From assembly GCA_020057295.1 (NCBI GenBank), contig JAGVGF010000005.1, forward strand, positions 32,001-96,000: a stretch of 64,000 bases of DNA, read 5' to 3'. The stretch comes from an archaeon (GTDB lineage Archaea; Nanobdellota; Nanobdellia; Woesearchaeales; UBA9642). Positions 20,772 to 44,514 of the stretch are shown here, one piece after another (the first letter of the stretch is position 1; every line of letters starts with the position of its first letter). The notes under the pieces were generated by a model, which was not told the origin of the DNA, searched no databases, and worked only from the letters and a program-made list of their open reading frames with translations. The position numbers were made by a program, and so were the translations under genes.

Positions 20772-21401
20772 ATGGGAAATACGATATATTTGATAAGACA
20801 TGGAGAAAGCCACCACAATAAGTACACAATGCATCTTGTTGGAGGACATCAAGAAGACAGTCCGTTAACAGAACTTGGAGAAAAACAAGCAGAAGCTCTT
20901 GGAAAGAGATTACAAACTGAAGGAATTGCATTTGATAGAATATATGCATCGACAATGAAGCGTGCAAGTAGCACTGCAGATATTGCATGTAAACAGCAAG
21001 GAATTCCACTTGAAAGAATAATTCGTACAGACAGGATTGTGGAATTAAATCATGGAAATGTAAATGGAAGATTAAGATCTGAAATATACACTCCAGAACT
21101 GAAAAAATATCTTGATGAAAACTCGTGGGAATTTAAAATGGAAGGCGGAGAGTCACAGCGAGGAGTTGCAGATAGAATGTATTCAGTAGTTGAAGAAATA
21201 CTTTCTGAAAACATACCAACAGCAGCAATATTCACTCACGGTACAGCAACTAAATGTTTGCTTAGAAAAATTTTAGAATTTAATCCAAAACATATTTACA
21301 GAACATACATCGATAACACATCAATAACAGAACTAAAATATGATAATGAAGGATGGCATCTAGTAAGATTAAACGACATAAATCATCTGAGAAATTTATA
21401 G
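20772..21401 (+). CDS. Histidine phosphatase (phosphoglycerate mutase family)
   Basis: LIRHGES, ST.KRA..TA, GGES, FTHG, NTSIT. Confidence 0.94.
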   Translation: MGNTIYLIRHGESHHNKYTMHLVGGHQEDSPLTELGEKQAEALGKRLQTEGIAFDRIYASTMKRASSTADIACKQQGIPLERIIRTDRIVELNHGNVNGRLRSEIYTPELKKYLDENSWEFKMEGGESQRGVADRMYSVVEEILSENIPTAAIFTHGTATKCLLRKILEFNPKHIYRTYIDNTSITELKYDNEGWHLVRLNDINHLRNL

Positions 21402-31713: not shown

Positions 31714-32502
31714 TTATACTAGTCCTTGTAAAGCATATCCTATAAGATATGCTGCTCCAGAAGCAATTCCGCCAACAACGAGCATTTCCAATCCTGATAA
31801 GAACCAGTTCTTTCCTGTAACATACGTTTTTAACGCTCCTAGCGCGAAAAGTGTTAATGCTGTAAGAATTATTGCAACCAAAAGCATATTTAGAACTATT
31901 CCAAAAAATATTGCTAGAACAAACGCAAGCAAAGGAATAAATCCGAATAAAATAAAAGATCCAAATGTTACTAACGCGTTTTTTATTGGAGATTCCTCGT
32001 CTTGTAAGATTCCTAATTCTTCAACCATCATTAAATCTACAAATGCTTTCTTATTCTTCTCCATAATCGCAACAACTTTTTCTGATTCTTCTTTTGTATA
32101 TCCTTTATCCATATAAAGTTCGACCATCTCTTTATGTTCTCCTTCAGGATAATTTTCTACTTCCCACTCTTCTCTCTTACGCTCTTTCTTATGATATTCC
32201 TGTTCAGATTTAGTGCTAAGATAATCACCCACAGCCATGGATATTCCATCACCTATAAGGTTTGCAAATCCTAAAATAAGAACTACTCCAGAAGATAATG
32301 ATGCTCCTGCAGCTCCAGCCACGACAGCAAATGTTGTAATTATACCATCTAGACCACCGTAGATTGCACTTTTTATGTATGTTCCTGAAGTCATGTGTGG
32401 TTCAGGAGGTTCTAAAGATTTAGAAGAATGTATTTTGATAGTTTCTTTAATATCTTTATGTTCGAATGCTTCTCTCGCCTTTTCTAGATTTCTTGTAATC
32501 AT
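31714..32502 (-). CDS. VIT1/CCC1 family Fe/Mn transporter
   Basis: YGGLDGIITTFAVV, GFANLIGDGISMA, MMVEELG. Confidence 0.94.
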   Translation of the reverse strand: MITRNLEKAREAFEHKDIKETIKIHSSKSLEPPEPHMTSGTYIKSAIYGGLDGIITTFAVVAGAAGASLSSGVVLILGFANLIGDGISMAVGDYLSTKSEQEYHKKERKREEWEVENYPEGEHKEMVELYMDKGYTKEESEKVVAIMEKNKKAFVDLMMVEELGILQDEESPIKNALVTFGSFILFGFIPLLAFVLAIFFGIVLNMLLVAIILTALTLFALGALKTYVTGKNWFLSGLEMLVVGGIASGAAYLIGYALQGLV

Positions 32503-36937: not shown

Positions 36938-37096
36938 ATGACTAAGTTGCCAAAGTTCAAAGTATATACTGTTGATTTTAAATTACGACAATTTAGAATT
37001 GTCGACCTAAAAAATTCAAAAATAAAATTTATTGACTTTGATTCTAAAGAAGGAAAAACAATATTAAATGAGTTTAGAACTCAATACGAGAAGTGA
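36938..37096 (+). CDS. Small hypothetical protein (52 aa)
   Basis: Read manually: MTKLPKFKVYTVDFKLRQFRIVDLKNSKIKFIDFDSKEGKTILNEFRTQYEK; below ORF-track cutoff. Confidence 0.6.
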   Translation: MTKLPKFKVYTVDFKLRQFRIVDLKNSKIKFIDFDSKEGKTILNEFRTQYEK

Positions 37097-38945
37097 AAAA
37101 GTTTTCTGTATTCTTATCTAAGAAATAAACATAACAACCTTTCATTCCTCTTGTTAGTAATACTCTATAAACATTTTTTATAAATCTTGTAAATTCTTCA
37201 TCAGAAGCTTTTTTTACCATACTATCGGCAGAATTTTCTTTTTTACCAATCCATTCGCTTTTTTCTGGATTATAAACTAAGTCTCTTCCAAATATTACTC
37301 CAACATATTCAAATTCAAATCCTTGTATAGTATAGATGCTTCCACATTGGCTTACACCGTTAGGATCATAAGCCCATAAAGATGCCTTTACAACTCCAGG
37401 AGCTACCTTTTTAGAATCGCTCTTAGCTTCCCAAGTCATTCTGAAATCTCCTATAACAACATCTTCTACTAATGTTCCGTCTGGTTTCGTATCGCTCCAT
37501 TGCCAACAAAATCCTGCAGCCATTCTTGCACTATTTGGTTTTTCTTTATTTTTTTCTTGTATTGCTTCATATAGTGCTTTAGGAGAATTAAATATTTTGA
37601 AATCCATTTTCTCACTTTTATCTAATATTCTATTAGCAGTTTCTCTAACACCTAAAGTATTATCAACCCATAGCAAATATCCGTCAGAACCGCTACATCT
37701 GAATTGCGTTTTAAGTTCAAATTCAAATATTTCAGCACCTAATTTCTCAGCGTGTTTTTTAATCATATCAGTGCTTCCTATCTCATCAGGTCTAACACCT
37801 TGATAATCATCAATAAAAAATATACATAGCTTTGCAACTTTTAATAATTCGTCTATTTGAGGCAAGTCTGTTCTAAATTCTGCTTTAGTATATCTATTAT
37901 TACTTGTTTTTCTTATTCTATGAGCTTCATCACATATAAGAACATCTAAGTCGTTCTCTTTAGCTGTCGCAAAACTATTAAAGTATTTGAATAAATTTGC
38001 AATTCTTGCACCAACAATTTTTCTTAATGTTGACGTGAATGCTGCAGAACCTGTTGCATGATAAACTTTATGACCTTTTTTTAGCAACTCCGCTAAAACA
38101 TTTAGAGCTATAACAGATTTTCCAGTTCCTGGTCCACCTTGAACGATTATAACGGATTTTTTATTTAATGAAGCAATCTTTTTCGCACGGTCTACAATGG
38201 TATTGTATGCTGTTATCTGTTCATCAATCAATGTAAATGCTTGATTGCCTTCCATTGTGCTTCTTGTATGTTCTAATAATTTTTTAGAAGGAGTTATAGG
38301 ACTATTAGAGAATCTATTAAATATATCTAAACCTTTACCTTTCTCTAATTTTTCTTTTAGGTATTCTCCTAATTGACTAAAATCTTCTTTTGCGAAAAGT
38401 GGAAAATCTTTTAGTATATCTTGAAATTTTTGCCTGAATAGAACAGCATCTCCATCTCTAGAATAATTGTGGCAATATGCGCAAGAGTATAAATCCATTC
38501 CTTGTTCTTCGAATACCTGTATGAAATCTTTTAGGAAGAAATGATATCCTCTTACTTGAATACAAGGATGTGGTTCCATCCTTTTAGCTCCGCCAACAAA
38601 TGTTAAAATATTGCCTTCTATTTCTGAATCATCAACCGATGACCATTGTTTTAGTTCTATAACAACAACATTGTCTTCGCTATCTCTACCTTTACCAAAA
38701 AGTAAACAATCAATTCTATTTGTAGAGTATGGTATTTCATACTCTAAGATAATCATATTATCTAATAATGCGTTTTCCTGAATTGCGCTTTTTACAAATT
38801 GTAAAGAATTATTCCAAGAAGTATATTCTCCAGGAGAAACTTGCCTGCCATAATAATCATGAAAAGATCTCTTTAATTTTTCCGCTATTTGATTTTGAAC
38901 AGTATCTTCTATAAATTGTTTAGACGTTCCTGCGTATAATCTCAT
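37074..38945 (-). CDS. DUF2075 / Schlafen group-3-like SF1 helicase with N-terminal PD-(D/E)xK-like nuclease
   Basis: EY..P...RID...VVVIELKQW; Walker A GGPGTGKS; DEAHR; QFRCSGS; TIQGFE; YRVLLTRG. Confidence 0.88.
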   Translation of the reverse strand: MRLYAGTSKQFIEDTVQNQIAEKLKRSFHDYYGRQVSPGEYTSWNNSLQFVKSAIQENALLDNMIILEYEIPYSTNRIDCLLFGKGRDSEDNVVVIELKQWSSVDDSEIEGNILTFVGGAKRMEPHPCIQVRGYHFFLKDFIQVFEEQGMDLYSCAYCHNYSRDGDAVLFRQKFQDILKDFPLFAKEDFSQLGEYLKEKLEKGKGLDIFNRFSNSPITPSKKLLEHTRSTMEGNQAFTLIDEQITAYNTIVDRAKKIASLNKKSVIIVQGGPGTGKSVIALNVLAELLKKGHKVYHATGSAAFTSTLRKIVGARIANLFKYFNSFATAKENDLDVLICDEAHRIRKTSNNRYTKAEFRTDLPQIDELLKVAKLCIFFIDDYQGVRPDEIGSTDMIKKHAEKLGAEIFEFELKTQFRCSGSDGYLLWVDNTLGVRETANRILDKSEKMDFKIFNSPKALYEAIQEKNKEKPNSARMAAGFCWQWSDTKPDGTLVEDVVIGDFRMTWEAKSDSKKVAPGVVKASLWAYDPNGVSQCGSIYTIQGFEFEYVGVIFGRDLVYNPEKSEWIGKKENSADSMVKKASDEEFTRFIKNVYRVLLTRGMKGCYVYFLDKNTENFFTSRIEF

Positions 38946-39304
38946 TGTTCGTTATATTTCTTTCCAGAACCTTTGAATTTTTCTATAGGGTATTTCTCGT
39001 GATTCTCTCTCATCTTAGTTTCTAACGCTTTTGTTAAATCCACATCGTACCTATCTGACATTCTTAGTAAGAAGTAGAAAACATCAGCCATTTCATCTTC
39101 TATTTTTTGTCTCTTTTCTTTGTCTGTGAACATCTCATCTACTTCTTTATCTTTTTTCCACCTAAAATGTTCTAAAAGTTCAGAAGCTTCTATATTCATA
39201 GCTATTGCTAATTCTTTAGCATTATGAAATTGGTCCCAATCTCTCTCATCACAGAATTTCTTTATCTTCTCTTTCAATTCTTGAATGTTTGTTGAGTTGT
39301 CCAT
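38942..39304 (-). CDS. MazG-like nucleotide pyrophosphohydrolase (dCTPase type)
   Basis: FCDERDWDQFH, EASELLE.F.W, DEMADV, N..KYP; ATGA overlap with the helicase. Confidence 0.92.
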   Translation of the reverse strand: MDNSTNIQELKEKIKKFCDERDWDQFHNAKELAIAMNIEASELLEHFRWKKDKEVDEMFTDKEKRQKIEDEMADVFYFLLRMSDRYDVDLTKALETKMRENHEKYPIEKFKGSGKKYNEQ

Positions 39305-39352: not shown

Positions 39353-40015
39353 CTAGAATTTATCACACAACTCTTTAATTGCAACGGTCCAAAATGGGAG
39401 TTGATAGTTAATATCCGAAACTTCCACATTGGAAAGATAATCATGAGCAGCCGAATCACATAAAAACTTAATTCCAGATAATTCTTTGACTGTTTTGGGT
39501 AACAAAATTGGAACTCCCTTAATCTTTTCTTGCGAACATAAGTTTAACATATCGGTCAATCCTATAAAAGAGTTTCCGTCTTTTAGTAATTCTATTTTAT
39601 TATTTTTAGCAAAAACATAAAAAATAGATTTTTCTAATATTTTTCTCAAGAGAAAAGCTGCAGAAGTACCGCAATCATACTTTATAGCGGTATGCAATTC
39701 TCGCACCTCTTGTCTAAATTTATCTCCCAGTTTACTGATAGTTACCTCTGAAAGCACTTTATTTAATTCACCAATTTCCTGCGCTCTTATTTTTATTTGC
39801 GGTGGTTCTTTTTGAGAGAAACTAACCCGCCCAGTCACCGTCTTTCTAGATAAAATGCCTTTTTTGGCAGCATTAGCCATAGAAAACAAAACTAATTGAT
39901 CGCTGAAATTAAATCCGTCTCTTTTTAATTTTTCTTGGACATCTCTGACTGTTTTCCAATCACTAAAAAAACCTTCAGTATACAACATTTTAATTAATTC
40001 TATAACTGTAATCAT
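39353..40015 (-). CDS. EGFF winged-helix-like domain fused to a HEPN/DUF4145-like domain
   Basis: LYTEGFFSDWKT; SAAFLLRKILEK and KFLCDSAAH. Confidence 0.6.
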   Translation of the reverse strand: MITVIELIKMLYTEGFFSDWKTVRDVQEKLKRDGFNFSDQLVLFSMANAAKKGILSRKTVTGRVSFSQKEPPQIKIRAQEIGELNKVLSEVTISKLGDKFRQEVRELHTAIKYDCGTSAAFLLRKILEKSIFYVFAKNNKIELLKDGNSFIGLTDMLNLCSQEKIKGVPILLPKTVKELSGIKFLCDSAAHDYLSNVEVSDINYQLPFWTVAIKELCDKF

Positions 40016-40395
40016 TTCAAAAGTAGTTCTTTTATCTTCCTCAAATTATGATTAAGAACTATATATCCCTCTTTTTCTTTTTTGAGAAATTTATTATAAT
40101 GTGTGCATAAAGCATTTTTAGCACTACTAATACTTATAAATGCTCCCTTACTTACTTCTGCTGGTCCGGATGGCTCCACAAAACCTTCAATTCCTCTCAA
40201 TAAAATAGCTTTCTTACAAACTAAATAAATCAAAGCTTTTTTCATCTCATCTAACGAATTATATGCATCTTTAAACGAAATATTTCCTTGATTGTCGATA
40301 GTCACCAATGGTTTTAATATATCCACAACTAACTTCTTATCTTCAGTTTCGTTTTTTTCAACAAAAATTTCATCCAATTCATCAACTTTATTCAT
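40012..40395 (-). CDS. Hypothetical protein, HTH-like
   Basis: Start reassigned to MNKVDE (ATGA overlap with upstream stop); LIYLVCKKA...GPAEVSK. Confidence 0.65.
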   Translation of the reverse strand: MNKVDELDEIFVEKNETEDKKLVVDILKPLVTIDNQGNISFKDAYNSLDEMKKALIYLVCKKAILLRGIEGFVEPSGPAEVSKGAFISISSAKNALCTHYNKFLKKEKEGYIVLNHNLRKIKELLLK

Positions 40396-41258
40396 TTTTT
40401 CTTCACATAGTTCCAAGTCTTATTCTTTTTTTCTCGAATCAATAAGCCTCTAGCTTTTGTTAGTGTCTGTCTAATGTATGCATCAATGTCTTGTCGCCTA
40501 TTAAAAAATGTTCTTTTATTCAATTCATCACGAACATCGGTTATTGTTTTAAAAGTATCGAAAAAACCTTCGTTATAAAGCGTATCTATTTCTTTAGGCA
40601 TCCCGGAATTGGTAGATTTACCTCGAGAAACTGAAGGGGTGCTCTCAGCGGATATTTTCTCTCCAGACAAAATTTTCTTAATGTATTCGACTCCCTTATT
40701 ATATCCATCAATAGTCAACTTATATGAGGTGTTTGTGCTTCCTTTCTTACCTGATTTATGAATAATAAACTGAGAATATTTTTTTAAGTTTGTGCTTAAA
40801 TTAACAAGTGATTTAATGCCTTTCGATTTTGCCATATCTCTCAGATCTGCAGAATTTAATTCTCTTTCATCAAATGCTATTTTTTTTAAAGTCAGAATTA
40901 GTATAGTAAACATCAGATGCTCCTCGGCACTACTTCCCATAGAGATAGGACACAAGATTTCGAAATTGGTTCCGTTCACTTCGAAATAATCTTCAATTTT
41001 CTCAGGAGATACATTAAATTTTTTACTAAGAATTGTAATTGAATTGGACAAATCTCTCTTTTTTTGAATAAGAGCATTCTTTTTAAAACCTGACAAAACA
41101 TGTTCCGAAGGTTTAGATTCGACATTAGATGTTTTTTCTCCGATTATTAAACTATTGAGAACAATTTCGTATGTTTTTTCTCTCTGCTGCAAGTCTTTTA
41201 TGTCTGAAACCGATTCTTTTGCAATTCCGATAAATTCCTTAATCTTTTCGCTATTCAT
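40392..41258 (-). CDS. Hypothetical multi winged-helix-like protein with C-terminal EGFF domain
   Basis: Central ...YKLTIDG wing; C-terminal LYNEGFFDTFKT...WNY. Confidence 0.65.
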   Translation of the reverse strand: MNSEKIKEFIGIAKESVSDIKDLQQREKTYEIVLNSLIIGEKTSNVESKPSEHVLSGFKKNALIQKKRDLSNSITILSKKFNVSPEKIEDYFEVNGTNFEILCPISMGSSAEEHLMFTILILTLKKIAFDERELNSADLRDMAKSKGIKSLVNLSTNLKKYSQFIIHKSGKKGSTNTSYKLTIDGYNKGVEYIKKILSGEKISAESTPSVSRGKSTNSGMPKEIDTLYNEGFFDTFKTITDVRDELNKRTFFNRRQDIDAYIRQTLTKARGLLIREKKNKTWNYVKKK

Positions 41259-41620
41259 CGTTTAACGTACACCCATTTTAGATTTTCTTTTAAGCGGCCA
41301 AGCTCTCTATTTTGTATCAATCGAACAAGAGTTGGCTGAATTGATGTAATAGGATAAATGAGAGTTTTTCTTGCCAATTCATTCTTTATCTGTACCAAAT
41401 CTTTAGGTTTATCAAAAAAACCTTCTTCCTTGAGTTCCCTCACATAATCTGTTAATCCGGATTTAGTTTTCATTTTAGATTTTTTTATATCCTTAGGAAC
41501 AGTTCGTTCGATGTGAGGTTCTTGATGATTTATCGCTTTTATTATTTTAGCTATTTCGTCTTCATTACCGTCAATAGTAATTTTTGTACCATTTGTTGTT
41601 TCAATATTTGCCTTTGCCAT
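41255..41620 (-). CDS. Small EGFF winged-helix-like protein
   Basis: N-terminal beta hairpin (ITIDG); LKEEGFFDKPK...WVY. Confidence 0.65.
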   Translation of the reverse strand: MAKANIETTNGTKITIDGNEDEIAKIIKAINHQEPHIERTVPKDIKKSKMKTKSGLTDYVRELKEEGFFDKPKDLVQIKNELARKTLIYPITSIQPTLVRLIQNRELGRLKENLKWVYVKR

Positions 41621-41652: not shown

Positions 41653-41667
41653 TATATAAACTTTTCG
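41653..41667 (-). promoter_or_regulatory. BRE + TATA promoter for the EGFF operon
   Basis: Minus strand CGAAAAG-TTTATATA about 32 nt upstream of the ATG at 41620. Confidence 0.6.
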
Positions 41668-41887
41668 ATAAGATGTATTATCTATAGATTCATCTTAGTG
41701 TCATGTCATATATCCTATTTATATAATACGTATATATTAATCCAACCTATTTCTATTATTTCGAGCACAAAACCACTGGACACCCATGCCTAAGGTATTT
41801 AAAGCAGTCATTAGCTTTAAAAACATGGATACTGTCACATTGATTGCTGAGGAGTATATGAAGAAGGACAGAGTTGTTAATTATCTT

Positions 41888-44125
41888 ATGGACTTTACAC
41901 CTAGACTCTATCAGGAGTCTATTTTCAGTACGTGTACGAATAATAATACTATGGTTGTTCTCCCAACAGGAGTAGGAAAAACTGCGATTTTTCTTATGAT
42001 GGCAGCATACAGGTTAAGTATGTATCCTAAATCTAAAATTCTATTATTAGGACCAACAAGACCGTTAATTGAACAGTATGCTGAAGTTTTTAAGAAACAT
42101 TTCAATCTAGAAGCTGCTAAAATGACTATATTTACAGGATTTGTCAGTCCAGAAAAGAGAGCAGAATTATGGAAGACAAGTCAGATTATCTTTTCCACTC
42201 CTCAAGGTTTAGAAAATGATATCTTATCAAATAAGATTGATATCTCTGATATTTCATTATTAGGATTTGACGAGTCTCATAGAGCAACTGGCGAATACTC
42301 GTACAATTTTGTTGCTAAACAATATATTAAACGTGCACTTCATCCAAGAATATTAGCGTTAACAGCCTCCCCTGGAACTGATCATGAAACTATTAATGAA
42401 GTCTGTAAGAATTTATTTATTGAAAAAATAGAAGTTAGAACAACAACTGACGAGGATGTCAAGCCGTACATTAAAGATGTTGACATAAAAAAAGTTTTTG
42501 TTGAACTTCCAGATGAATTTATTGATATTAAAAAATATCTTGATGCATCTTATAAGTCTAAATTTGTTGAATTAAAAAATTTAGGATTCACAACTGAAGG
42601 AGTAAAATATTCTAAAAGAAATATTCTTGGAATGCAAGCAGAAATACATGCAAAAATAGCACAGGGAGAACGTGATTTTGAAACATTAAAAGCACTCAGT
42701 CTTTTAGCAGAAGTGATTAAGATTCATCATGCAATAGAACTTGTTGAAACACAAGGTCTAGACTCGTTAAAAGAATATATGGATAAATTACAGAGTGAAG
42801 CACGAACTGGAAAAACAAAGGCAAGTATTAATTTAGCGCGAGATATTAATTTTAGGAGTGCATACGTAAAACTCGAAAAAGTTGTGGGAAAATTTGAACA
42901 TCCAAAACTTACTGAATTAAAAAAGATAGTTACAGAAGAACTCGATAAAAATAATTCAGAAAATATAAAAAAGAAAATTATTATTTTTTCACAGTATAGA
43001 GATTCTGGAAGTAAGATTACAAAAGAATTAAACGCATTAGGATTTAAAACAAAGTTGTTCGTAGGTCAAGCAAAGAAGAAAGATACAGGTTTAAGTCAAA
43101 AAAAGCAAAAGGAAATGTTAGAAGAATTTACGAATACTGATTTTAATGTTTTAGTTTCAAGCTCTGTTGGGGAAGAAGGGCTAGACATCCCCCAGGTTGA
43201 TCTAGTCATCTTCTACGAGCCAGTTCCAAGTGCAATAAGAAAAATACAGCGTTCAGGAAGAACAGGAAGATTAGATGATGGAAGAATCATAATGCTTATT
43301 ACTAAAGATACTGTTGATGAAGTATATTATCATGTTGCACGAAATAAGGAAAAGAGAATGTATAGAACCATAGGCGAGATAACTAAGAATTATAGTACGA
43401 GTAAGCAGAAAGATAATGATGGCAATCAAGTTGCTAAAACGTTAATGGATTTTGAAGAAAAAGTGGAAGAGCAAAAACCGAAGACTAACAAGTTAAGAAT
43501 CATTGCAGATTATCGTGAGAAAGGATCTAATGTTCTAAAAGAATTATTTGATAAGACAGAATTAGGTTTAGAAAAATTAGATATAGGAGATTTTCTACTC
43601 AGCTCACGTGTTATTGTTGAATATAAGACTGTTCAAGATTTCGTTGATTCAATTATAGATGGAAGACTTTTAACTCAATTAAGAGAATTAAAGAAATATG
43701 AAAGACCGCTTATTATTGTTGAAGGAACTGAAGATATCTATAATGTAAGAAAGATACATCCAAATAGTATTAGAGGAATGATTGCAACAATTACAGTTTC
43801 ATACGGTATTCCATTAATTCAGACCAGGAATAGTAAAGATACTGCAGAATATTTGATGGCAATAGCAAAGCGTGAACAGGATGAAGGAAAATCTGAAGTT
43901 CAACATCATTACAATAAGCCAATGTCAGTTAAAGAACAACAAGAATATTTTATCAGCGCTTTACCAAATATTGGAATGGGGGGCGCTAGACCGTTATTAA
44001 AACATTTCAAGAATGTAAAAAATATAATCAATGCATCTGAAGAAGACTTAAAGAAAGTTGACTTGATTGGTCCTAAGAAGTCTAAGACGTTAAAAGATAT
44101 ATTCGACAAGGATTGGGAAGAATAA
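41888..44125 (+). CDS. hef: Hef helicase-nuclease (FANCM-like SF2 helicase + ERCC4/XPF nuclease)
   Basis: PRLYQ, PTGVGKT, DESH, TAS, QRSGRTGR, D.RE, GDF, VEYK, HhH (LIGPKK); likely start MDFTPR, track start 41786. Confidence 0.93.
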   Translation: MDFTPRLYQESIFSTCTNNNTMVVLPTGVGKTAIFLMMAAYRLSMYPKSKILLLGPTRPLIEQYAEVFKKHFNLEAAKMTIFTGFVSPEKRAELWKTSQIIFSTPQGLENDILSNKIDISDISLLGFDESHRATGEYSYNFVAKQYIKRALHPRILALTASPGTDHETINEVCKNLFIEKIEVRTTTDEDVKPYIKDVDIKKVFVELPDEFIDIKKYLDASYKSKFVELKNLGFTTEGVKYSKRNILGMQAEIHAKIAQGERDFETLKALSLLAEVIKIHHAIELVETQGLDSLKEYMDKLQSEARTGKTKASINLARDINFRSAYVKLEKVVGKFEHPKLTELKKIVTEELDKNNSENIKKKIIIFSQYRDSGSKITKELNALGFKTKLFVGQAKKKDTGLSQKKQKEMLEEFTNTDFNVLVSSSVGEEGLDIPQVDLVIFYEPVPSAIRKIQRSGRTGRLDDGRIIMLITKDTVDEVYYHVARNKEKRMYRTIGEITKNYSTSKQKDNDGNQVAKTLMDFEEKVEEQKPKTNKLRIIADYREKGSNVLKELFDKTELGLEKLDIGDFLLSSRVIVEYKTVQDFVDSIIDGRLLTQLRELKKYERPLIIVEGTEDIYNVRKIHPNSIRGMIATITVSYGIPLIQTRNSKDTAEYLMAIAKREQDEGKSEVQHHYNKPMSVKEQQEYFISALPNIGMGGARPLLKHFKNVKNIINASEEDLKKVDLIGPKKSKTLKDIFDKDWEE

Positions 44126-44199: not shown

Positions 44200-44514
44200 A
44201 TGTATAATATTTACAAGACAGAATTATTCGATAAAAAATTCAAGAAACTTATCCCACTAAACAGGCAAGAGGATATTTTACGAAGAATAGAAAATCTCGC
44301 AAATAATCCTTATGCCGGAAAACCTTTAGGCTACTCGTTCATAAGAGAGATGAAATTGGACAAGTATAGAGTATATTATGCTGTATTTGAAAGAGAACTT
44401 GTGGTTTTAGTAATGACTGTAAGTGATAAGAAAGAACAGCAAAAAGAGATAGATAAAATCAAAGAGAAAGGAGCCTTACAAACATACTTCAAAAAATCCG
44501 TAAAATTTAAATAA
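44200..44514 (+). CDS. RelE/ParE family toxin
   Basis: F.KKFKKL, NPYAGKPLG, REMK..KYRVYY, SDKKEQQ. Confidence 0.8.
   Translation: MYNIYKTELFDKKFKKLIPLNRQEDILRRIENLANNPYAGKPLGYSFIREMKLDKYRVYYAVFERELVVLVMTVSDKKEQQKEIDKIKEKGALQTYFKKSVKFK

Follow-up and report, generated by a model that had tools for sequence, protein, structure and literature searches.

A four-gene operon of DPANN archaea with a shared winged-helix domain and a DUF4145-like HEPN protein, probably an undescribed defence or toxin–antitoxin module

What could an archaeal operon do in which three of four proteins share one small domain and none matches a named family? The question is raised by genes A to D at 39353–41620 of the stretch analysed here, 64,000 nucleotides (nt) from positions 32,001 to 96,000 of contig JAGVGF010000005.1, the whole of which is called the window. 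The window belongs to a 1.2 Mb genome in 6 contigs and has a G+C content of about 31%, and the relatives of its proteins are labelled Woesearchaeota and Pacearchaeota, which makes the source a DPANN-type archaeon. DPANN archaea have tiny genomes, and to our knowledge few defence systems are known from them. A 2026 survey describes them as poor in CRISPR and restriction systems and enriched in compact candidate systems (PMC12988326). We found that A, B and D carry copies of one basic winged-helix domain, called EGFF here, that the C-terminal half of D is, by sequence kinship, a divergent DUF4145-type HEPN domain, and that related operons keep their EGFF partners while the effector gene is exchanged. 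The operon family probably represents undescribed defence or toxin–antitoxin (TA) modules. Our best explanation for the operon itself, to which we give about an even chance, is a mobile module, TA-like or of the abortive-infection kind, in which the winged-helix partners control a toxin via the shared domain. The four open reading frames (ORFs) are:

41255–41620, minus strand: gene A, 121 residues; N-terminal beta-hairpin and helix (conserved MAKANIETTNGTKITI.G), linker, EGFF winged helix
40392–41258, minus strand: gene B, 288 residues; helical hairpin, disordered linker, winged helix, EGFF winged helix
40012–40395, minus strand: gene C, 127 residues counted from ATG; small protein of an unnamed family
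39353–40015, minus strand: gene D, 220 residues; EGFF winged helix fused to a DUF4145-like HEPN domain

The EGFF domain in A, B and D

The domain is about 70 residues long and is found at three places:

41258–41464, minus strand: EGFF of A, residues 53–121 (alignments, profile comparison)
40395–40613, minus strand: EGFF of B, residues 216–288 (alignments, AlphaFold2 model, profile comparison)
39806–40015, minus strand: EGFF of D, residues 1–70 (AlphaFold2 model, profile comparison)

An earlier note on this DNA had proposed that one domain is used as a stand-alone protein in A, C-terminally in B and N-terminally in D, and this is confirmed by BLASTP, by profile–profile comparison and by cross-matches of hidden Markov models (HMMs). 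In BLASTP, residues 8–121 of A align with 175–287 of B (E 2e-9, 34/116 identical) and residues 8–36 of D with 224–253 of B (E 5e-6). Although the direct BLASTP comparison of A with D is not significant (E 14), the triangle of homology closes with family profiles: profile–profile comparisons of family alignments, over 67–70 columns, gave 98.3% probability for A against B-EGFF (E 1.9e-14), 98.2% for A against D-EGFF (E 4.4e-14) and 97.3% for B-EGFF against D-EGFF (E 2.6e-11), and the EGFF HMMs of A, B and D likewise match each other's families. The length proposed for the shared segment, about 65 residues, stood only in part; the domain is real, but the similarity between A and B extends beyond it, over the last ~113 residues of B.

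The copies in B and D also agree in predicted structure. In the AlphaFold2 (AF2) models of B and D, with a mean predicted local distance difference test (pLDDT) of 81.4 and 82.4, respectively, B 220–286 and D 4–68 have the same order of helices (H) and strands (b), H-b-H-H-b-b, with helices at 4–13, 23–32 and 39–51 and strands at 55–60 and 63–68 of D, and helices at 220–229, 239–248 and 255–269 and strands at 273–278 and 281–286 of B. The top Foldseek rows for the D model are winged helices of PadR, Fur, MecI/BlaI and F93 (probability 1.0, E 0.07–0.25), with no match at E<=0.001, and the models point to a winged-helix fold for EGFF. All three copies are basic, with isoelectric points (pI) of 9.7–9.9 (9.7 for the whole of gene A). 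Since a Pfam scan of 18 A-type and 14 B-type alignment members yielded scattered weak helix-turn-helix (HTH) matches and no consistent family, EGFF has no name in Pfam. A sequence search of the PDB with D-family and A-family profiles gave nothing significant either (best PrsA, E 2.1, and the BlaI winged helix, E 0.31).

None of A to D has a meaningful match among the models of Pfam, NCBIfam or PADLOC. The best PADLOC match of the operon is that of D with PD-Lambda-5_A (E 0.016 over 50 residues), A to C having none, so that the earlier impression that no named system has this architecture agrees with a PADLOC scan free of matches at E<=0.01.

The C-terminal half of D

The second half of D and the motif within it lie as follows:

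39356–39784, minus strand: DUF4145-like HEPN domain of D, residues 78–220 (family profiles, ESM Atlas)
39443–39469, minus strand: putative active-site motif K183-x7-H191 (GIKFL[CG]DxAAH) of D (conservation in 34/34 sequences, x7 spacing as in RAZR)

The last gene had been called HEPN-like from its letters, and profile comparison upholds the assignment. A word-indexed search found a D family of 94 members, self included, some of them labelled Woesearchaeota, Patescibacteria and Spirochaetia; residue conservation is given here for 34 aligned sequences out of the 94. Below-threshold matches to PF13643 (DUF4145) are found in 18 of these 34, with a best E of 0.0015. In hhalign, the D family matches the effector of one related operon, L004, with 93.4% probability (E 2.4e-7, 194 columns), and that effector passes PF13643 with 28.7 bits at a cut-off of 23.1. 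The HEPN half of D by itself matches the effectors of L004 and a second operon, L029, with 96.1% probability (E 2.9e-9, 116 columns). The nearest ESM Atlas clusters of D are DUF4145 (score 0.94), the family being found on 41% of the first cluster's members. These comparisons argue for profile-level homology of the D family to bona fide DUF4145 members, and by this kinship the C-terminal half of D is a divergent DUF4145-type HEPN domain.

DUF4145 is described as a HEPN family often found in restriction-modification (R-M) operons (PMC3710099). RAZR, an abortive-infection system, uses its DUF4145 domain as the RNase, and its defence depends on R146 and H154 (PMC13017515). Across the 34 D-family sequences, R124, K125, E128, K129, K183, D187 and H191 are invariant, R124 and E128 being located on a helix earlier than the K183/H191 motif. 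Because K183, D187, H191, R124 and E128 stay invariant while the family falls to ~30% identity, the set looks like an active site and not like a degenerate one. D is probably an RNA-cutting toxin. Elsewhere in the window, the D-HEPN HMM gave a weak match at 20772–21401, which was rejected as a chance match to 'LLRKILE' (hhalign 37% over 34 columns); by eye this gene has the RHG start of a histidine phosphatase.

Sister operons and their neighbourhoods

The genes are rare and patchily spread. D is present in 1 of 61 relatives, namely the source genome, and in none of 12 genomes of the same genus. Profile searches found B in 8/401 genomes of a phylum sample, D in 7/401, and A/EGFF in 7/401 genomes of an order sample and 7/401 of the phylum sample, all counts per 401 including the source genome. 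Among 1.84 billion representatives, 463 proteins matched the B profile at E<=1e-3; of the 150 listed, read by eye, ~17 are full-length B-type proteins and ~17 short EGFF-only ones, and most others are proteins of 165–210 residues that align only to B 1–190.

We examined 14 distinct loci, namely the window, L003, L004, L005, L010, L025, L027, L028, L029, L038, L039, L049, L050 and L051, leaving out duplicates (L006, L012–L023, L030–L037, L040–L048, L052–L055), short fragments (L007–L009, L011) and two loci with the middle part of B only (L024, L026). Orthologues of gene A occur in L003, L010, L038, L039, L049 and L050. The effector is DUF4145-like in three of the 14 (window, L004, L029). In another three it is a Ymh-HEPN protein (L003, 2.3e-28; L025, 5.3e-20; L039, 8.2e-21) that keeps an intact R-x4-H motif (RNPRGH, RNAKGH) and has an EGFF-like N-terminus (D-EGFF against the Ymh effectors, 96.0%, E 4.3e-9). 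PLD-like effectors are found in L049, L028 and L038 (3/14): the L049 protein matches PLDc_2 above the Pfam cut-off (E 2.5e-8), while those of L028 and L038 fall short of it and match PADLOC PDC-S05 at 8e-15 and 5e-13, respectively, the L038 effector being a fusion of EGFF and the PLD-like domain (HMM 2.2e-15). L050 carries a HicA toxin (1/14; PF07927, E 2.8e-8, 34.2 bits, cut-off 27), with an A-type gene 11 nt upstream. The helical proteins in third position of L005 (3502–4227), L010 (5423–6172) and L027 (2160–2933) could be matched neither to a family nor to another module; these proteins of 241–257 residues contain motifs such as LSEKG[NS]H or RNDRGVSH and may be further HEPN-like toxins. 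No effector is evident in the one remaining locus, L051. Two loci are two-gene forms, combining an A-type gene with a D-type EGFF-Ymh gene (L039) or with HicA (L050).

Hence the genes are co-conserved elsewhere in a modular fashion, sister operons keeping the EGFF partners and exchanging the effector in an interchangeable position. An adjacent partner together with a toxin of a known family, as in type II TA systems, is found in L050 (HicA) and L039 (EGFF-Ymh); the toxin assignment in the window rests on kinship with DUF4145.

A second type of winged helix, the 'SQIA' type ('..LSxxQIAxI..'), is found at L004 7475–9610, L005 2200–2709 and L029 5273–6031. In L004, the winged helix of the stand-alone upstream partner matches the N-terminus of the operon's own DUF4145 effector (E 3e-9), and the second winged helix of the L005 partner matches that of the L029 effector (E 9e-10). 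Since partner and effector are here matched via a different winged helix, the rule that the effector carries its partner's winged helix recurs with a second, unrelated domain. The N-terminus of the L004-type partner resembles the N-terminal hairpin of B (65.8%, E 5.7e-5). At L029 6010–7454, a 65-residue ORF with EGFF seems to be what is left of a longer gene after insertion of a transposase-like gene of 330 residues, which we take by eye to be IS110-like. A bolder reading, which seems possible to us and falls clearly short of an even chance, sees EGFF and the 'SQIA'-type winged helix as the archaeal equivalents of Death-like or effector-associated adaptor domains. Matching winged helices on the toxin and on stand-alone sensors or scaffolds would then make up a homotypic code recruiting interchangeable effectors (two HEPN types, PLD and HicA), and the operons would constitute an immune-system family of DPANN archaea that had escaped notice, often acting as a second layer behind R-M.

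Outside EGFF, a further winged helix is seen in B. B has an N-terminal helical hairpin (residues 1–45) and the following middle part:

Residues 66–200 of B, minus strand: middle winged helix with the signature LSTNLKK...GSTNTSYKLT (AF2 model, family search)

The middle of B had been noticed as HTH-like, consistent with a second winged helix at 110–198 in the AF2 model; Foldseek matched the B model only weakly (best E 0.016), to winged helices of tandem or MarR type. The same suggestion made for C found no clear support, as C matches the B middle with a profile–profile probability of only 22.6% (E 9e-4). The C family has 7 homologues, with copies in L028, L038 (two) and L049, and its nearest ESM Atlas clusters are unnamed proteins of ~127 residues. 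Relations of C, of C' or of the third gene of L005 and L010 to another module were unsupported in profile comparisons. For C, the ORF lister offers an alternative TTG start at 40416. This kind of extension, 'M-E/A/G-L/V-C-x-x-K-M', recurs on ORFs that follow EGFF-ending genes (window 40395–40416, L003 772, L004 8819, L005 3502, L029 6031); because this peptide is the other frame of the conserved C-terminal W-x-Y-V-x-K-K-stop, the ATG within ATGA is the likelier start.

The winged helix of the B middle (LSTNLKK...GST..Y.LT) is also present without EGFF in proteins of 294–454 residues having an extra N-terminal winged helix (L026 7421–8640, L024 2253–3617, L025 5698–6630), whose neighbours are a small ORF with weak, non-significant YoeB/RelB matches, MNT/HEPN and AbiEii genes, or an EGFF-Ymh effector. 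By eye, the 111-residue ORF 3' of the L026 protein resembled RelE/YoeB, an identity that is not claimed here, since the ORF reached only E 0.57 in a PDB phmmer search.

The earlier note considered an antiviral role possible, and a conflict context of this kind is seen at sister loci, with type I, type III and type IIG-like R-M, GmrSD, ABC-3C and AbiE neighbours. R-M genes, checked with Pfam, are touched by five of the 14 loci (L010, L038, L049, L027, L028), two of which are nested in type I hsd operons, in the order hsdM, DUF3800, hsdS, A-B-effector, GmrSD-like, hsdR in L010 and hsdR, A, 128-residue gene, C, C, EGFF-PLD, hsdS, MNT, HEPN, hsdM in L038. L049 adjoins type III Mod/Res, L027 an Eco57I-like methylase and L028 an N6_N4 methylase. 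L029 lies near an ABC-3C ATPase and an HNH protein, and the B-middle-only locus L024 near AbiEii and MNT; L003 has no flanking sequence. The GmrSD-like gene of L010 (6199–8565, minus strand), situated between the EGFF operon and hsdR, encodes a 788-residue GmrSD_N protein (2.2e-30) with DUF5655 at its C-terminus and an internal match to Swt1-type HEPN that, at 25.1 bits, falls just short of the cut-off of 27.5.

Such embedding raises the possibility of a PrrC-like restriction guard, normally wired to an R-M enzyme, whose nuclease would fire when a virus disables that enzyme, the window copy being an orphan or working with an R-M system or the helicase encoded elsewhere. The nesting between hsdR and hsdS (L038) and between hsdS and hsdR (L010) would suit a guard, as would the type III, Eco57I-like and N6_N4 methylase genes abutted by the others, and DUF4145 and Ymh are counted among the R-M-linked HEPN families, for which a PrrC-like two-layer defence was proposed (PMC3710099). 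We nevertheless regard a guard as quite unlikely, since an adjacent R-M gene is lacking in the window and at 8 further loci among the 14, no ABC ATPase or other PrrC-like regulator is present, unrelated mobile TA or abortive-infection cassettes also commonly nest in hsd operons, and nothing seen here indicates contact with R-M subunits.

In the window, the operon is followed on the same strand, only 48 nt beyond D, by a MazG-like pyrophosphatase gene (PF12643, 1.2e-16) that overlaps by ATGA the gene of a 623-residue protein (both within 37074–39304, minus strand). The latter is a Schlafen-group-3/DUF2075 helicase (PF09848, 5.8e-91) with a weak N-terminal NERD match (PF08378, E 8.8e-4, 20.2 bits, cut-off 22.1), and it matches the PADLOC models PDC-S41 (5.9e-23), Nhi (2.5e-16) and AbiO (7.6e-16). 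This arrangement, with a helicase matching defence models, could suggest a six-gene system of A to D plus the MazG-like pyrophosphatase and the NERD/Schlafen-type helicase, which we think very improbable: at none of the 13 sister loci is the EGFF operon accompanied by a MazG-like or DUF2075-type neighbour, and the 48-nt spacer contains an AT-rich TATA-like stretch, so that the pair may have its own promoter. The two genes are probably a separate two-gene defence candidate. On the other side, 2.6 kb upstream of the operon, a ParE-type toxin gene (44200–44514, plus strand; PF05016, 2.8e-7) stands just after a Hef-like helicase-nuclease gene (41786–44125).

A possible mechanism and its known counterparts

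An operon family that swaps its nuclease or toxin effectors, keeps partners without enzymatic function, overlaps its genes tightly, is patchily spread and lies among R-M or defence genes bears the signature of a TA or abortive-infection conflict module. The region in front of gene A contains the elements by which such a module might be controlled:

41653–41660, minus strand: TATA-like tttatata, 5' of the operon (sequence reading)
41661–41667, minus strand: cgaaaag, resembling a transcription factor B recognition element (BRE), 5' of the operon (sequence reading)
41669–41697, strand not given: inverted repeat with 10-nt arms, 9-nt spacer and 90% complementarity, abutting the BRE; candidate operator

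The BRE/TATA-like elements lie 33–47 nt upstream of the start codon of A. Together with ATGA stop/start overlaps at all three junctions (A/B, B/C and C/D), they bear out, by ORF positions and sequence, the original description of four overlapping genes behind one promoter. The operon has a G+C content of 0.314, the same as its surroundings. A block CATCTTAyCGAAAAGT..ATATA is also found upstream of the orthologous L003 operon, and the right arm of the inverted repeat falls inside this conserved block. From its position next to the BRE, the repeat may be an operator.

In the mechanism that we infer for a mobile TA-like or abortive-infection module, D would be a latent toxin, a presumed HEPN RNase carried on its N-terminal EGFF winged helix, and A and B, which have EGFF and no enzyme, would be non-enzymatic control components together with C. 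One or more of the winged-helix proteins would repress the operon at the inverted repeat by the BRE/TATA elements. A and/or B would hold D inactive via the shared domain, either by EGFF–EGFF contact that blocks productive HEPN dimerisation or by occupying the same nucleic-acid site. A trigger, which might be infection, disappearance of the labile partners or the breakdown of a restriction system encoded nearby, would then release D, which would cut RNA and arrest the cell. A complex prediction for D and A, both given as alignments, had a score of 0.01 and a mark of 0.32; made without controls, it counts neither for nor against binding.

Several observations weigh against this mechanism. The position of the catalytic HEPN Arg is Lys (K183) in all 34 D-family sequences, so that of the Arg and His of active HEPN RNases D has only H191, and HEPN domains without the motif may be, and probably are, non-catalytic binders (PMC3710099). 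The AF2 model of D has low confidence at the motif (pLDDT <50 at 188–194), window D has no PF13643 match at E<=1 in Pfam, and among the 50 Foldseek matches listed for the D model there are only winged helices and no HEPN chain, all at E >0.001. EGFF copies of one operon are no closer to each other than to copies of other operons: window D and window B share 26% identity (rank 7/16 among B copies) and window A and window B 31% (rank 4/16), so that A-, B- and D-type copies look like old paralogue classes and not like co-evolving pairs. As to the surroundings, no R-M gene adjoins the window operon, and L004, L005, L039 and L051 (4/14) have no recognised defence or mobile neighbour, their neighbours having mostly been read by eye. 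No relatives of the D and B families were found in IMG/VR by pattern scans, within the scope of the patterns used, nor relatives of D in plasmids or phages by tblastn, within the scope of the query used. The dissimilar copies within one operon, and the Lys that replaces the catalytic Arg of DUF4145/RAZR, also speak against a simple form of the homotypic-adaptor idea of the earlier note.

The same Lys could be taken as a sign that the operon is a regulatory or chromatin cassette in which all four proteins would be nucleic-acid-binding factors of a mobile islet, with the HEPN-like domain of D as a non-catalytic ligand or RNA binder, as proposed for the MtlR type, and with neither toxin nor defence. 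That every assigned domain except the HEPN-like one is a winged helix of basic pI would agree with such a cassette, as would the inverted repeat at the promoter and the view that motif-less HEPN domains are probably non-catalytic binders (PMC3710099). We consider it unlikely, given the active-site-like invariance of K183, D187, H191, R124 and E128 down to ~30% identity, the sister operons in which the same position holds a Ymh-HEPN protein with intact R-x4-H, a PLD-like protein or a HicA toxin, and the contexts of R-M or defence genes. If D is active, its invariant Lys instead of the HEPN Arg would be of enzymological interest.

What is new here, besides a domain absent from Pfam, is a recurring design rule, by which the toxin bears its partners' winged helix, realised with two unrelated winged helices. 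The effector swaps form a natural series that makes the rule testable. If partners do control the toxin via EGFF, the operon would be a simple version of adaptor-mediated effector coupling, free of any nucleoside triphosphatase (NTPase).

How far, then, does the operon resemble systems already described? A search of an open-access collection yielded no winged-helix-only operon with an EGFF-type domain; it covered text, and the supplementary tables of PMC3710099, PMC7159879 and PMC12988326, outside it, may bear on novelty. Sister effectors match PADLOC candidates through partial profiles of the effector domains only, PDC-S05 (8e-15, 5e-13) and NsnC/Menshen (8e-8) for the PLD-like proteins and Aga_HEPN (3.5e-10) and PD-Lambda-3_B (3.6e-9) for the Ymh proteins, whereas A to D of the window have no such matches. 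PrrC is embedded in hsdMSR and has an ABC-ATPase domain; the window operon has neither, whereas the sister operons L010 and L038 do lie within hsd operons. Type II TA systems (HicAB, HEPN/MNT, AbiE) share several features with the operon: their genes are compact and overlap, the nuclease toxin follows a DNA-binding partner, and their spread is patchy; in L050, an A-type gene stands directly upstream of HicA. In contrast to their one partner gene, there are three here, and the DNA-binding-type domain of the partner is also part of the toxin; the antitoxin families HicB, MNT and AbiEi were not detected in A to C in Pfam, NCBIfam and PADLOC scans.

Three likenesses go further. RAZR (PD-T7-4) resembles D in its C-terminal HEPN domain of DUF4145 type, to which a short recognition domain is fused N-terminally, with equal motif spacing (R146-x7-H154 in RAZR, K183-x7-H191 in D), and a defence-type distribution is common to both (PMC13017515). 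As described there, RAZR has a Cys4 zinc ribbon and acts alone, whereas D has a winged helix, three partner genes and Lys for Arg; D matches neither PD-T7-4 in PADLOC (E<=1) nor, by sequence, any PDB chain. AbiJ-type and R-M-linked HEPN genes (Anantharaman et al., 2013; PMC3710099) likewise combine effectors (DUF4145, Ymh or PLD/HKD) with a non-enzymatic domain at the N-terminus, occur within R-M operons and are predicted to be latent suicidal RNases, as proposed here. In contrast, EGFF has no AbiJ-NTD or other consistent Pfam match, and the N-terminal domain is here also encoded as separate partners in the same operon, a feature absent from the AbiJ description in the available portion of that paper. 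Effector-associated domains (EADs; Kaur et al., 2020; PMC7159879) are small non-enzymatic domains found on an effector and on an adjacent non-effector, with swappable effectors, a pattern also seen for EGFF in A, B and D and for the second winged helix of L004; in EAD systems, as that account has it, coupling is by homotypic contact. EADs are helical and described from multicellular bacteria, whereas EGFF is a basic winged helix of DPANN archaea; copies in adjacent genes are not closest to each other here (ranks 7/16 for D and 4/16 for A against B), and the NTPase core of EAD systems (MoxR-vWA, GTPase, STAND) is found neither in A to D nor in the sister operons read. Because it has no zinc ribbon, no PD-T7-4 match, no AbiJ-NTD match and no NTPase core, the operon is a member of none of these systems; in its way of working it is most like RAZR, AbiJ-type proteins and the logic of EADs.

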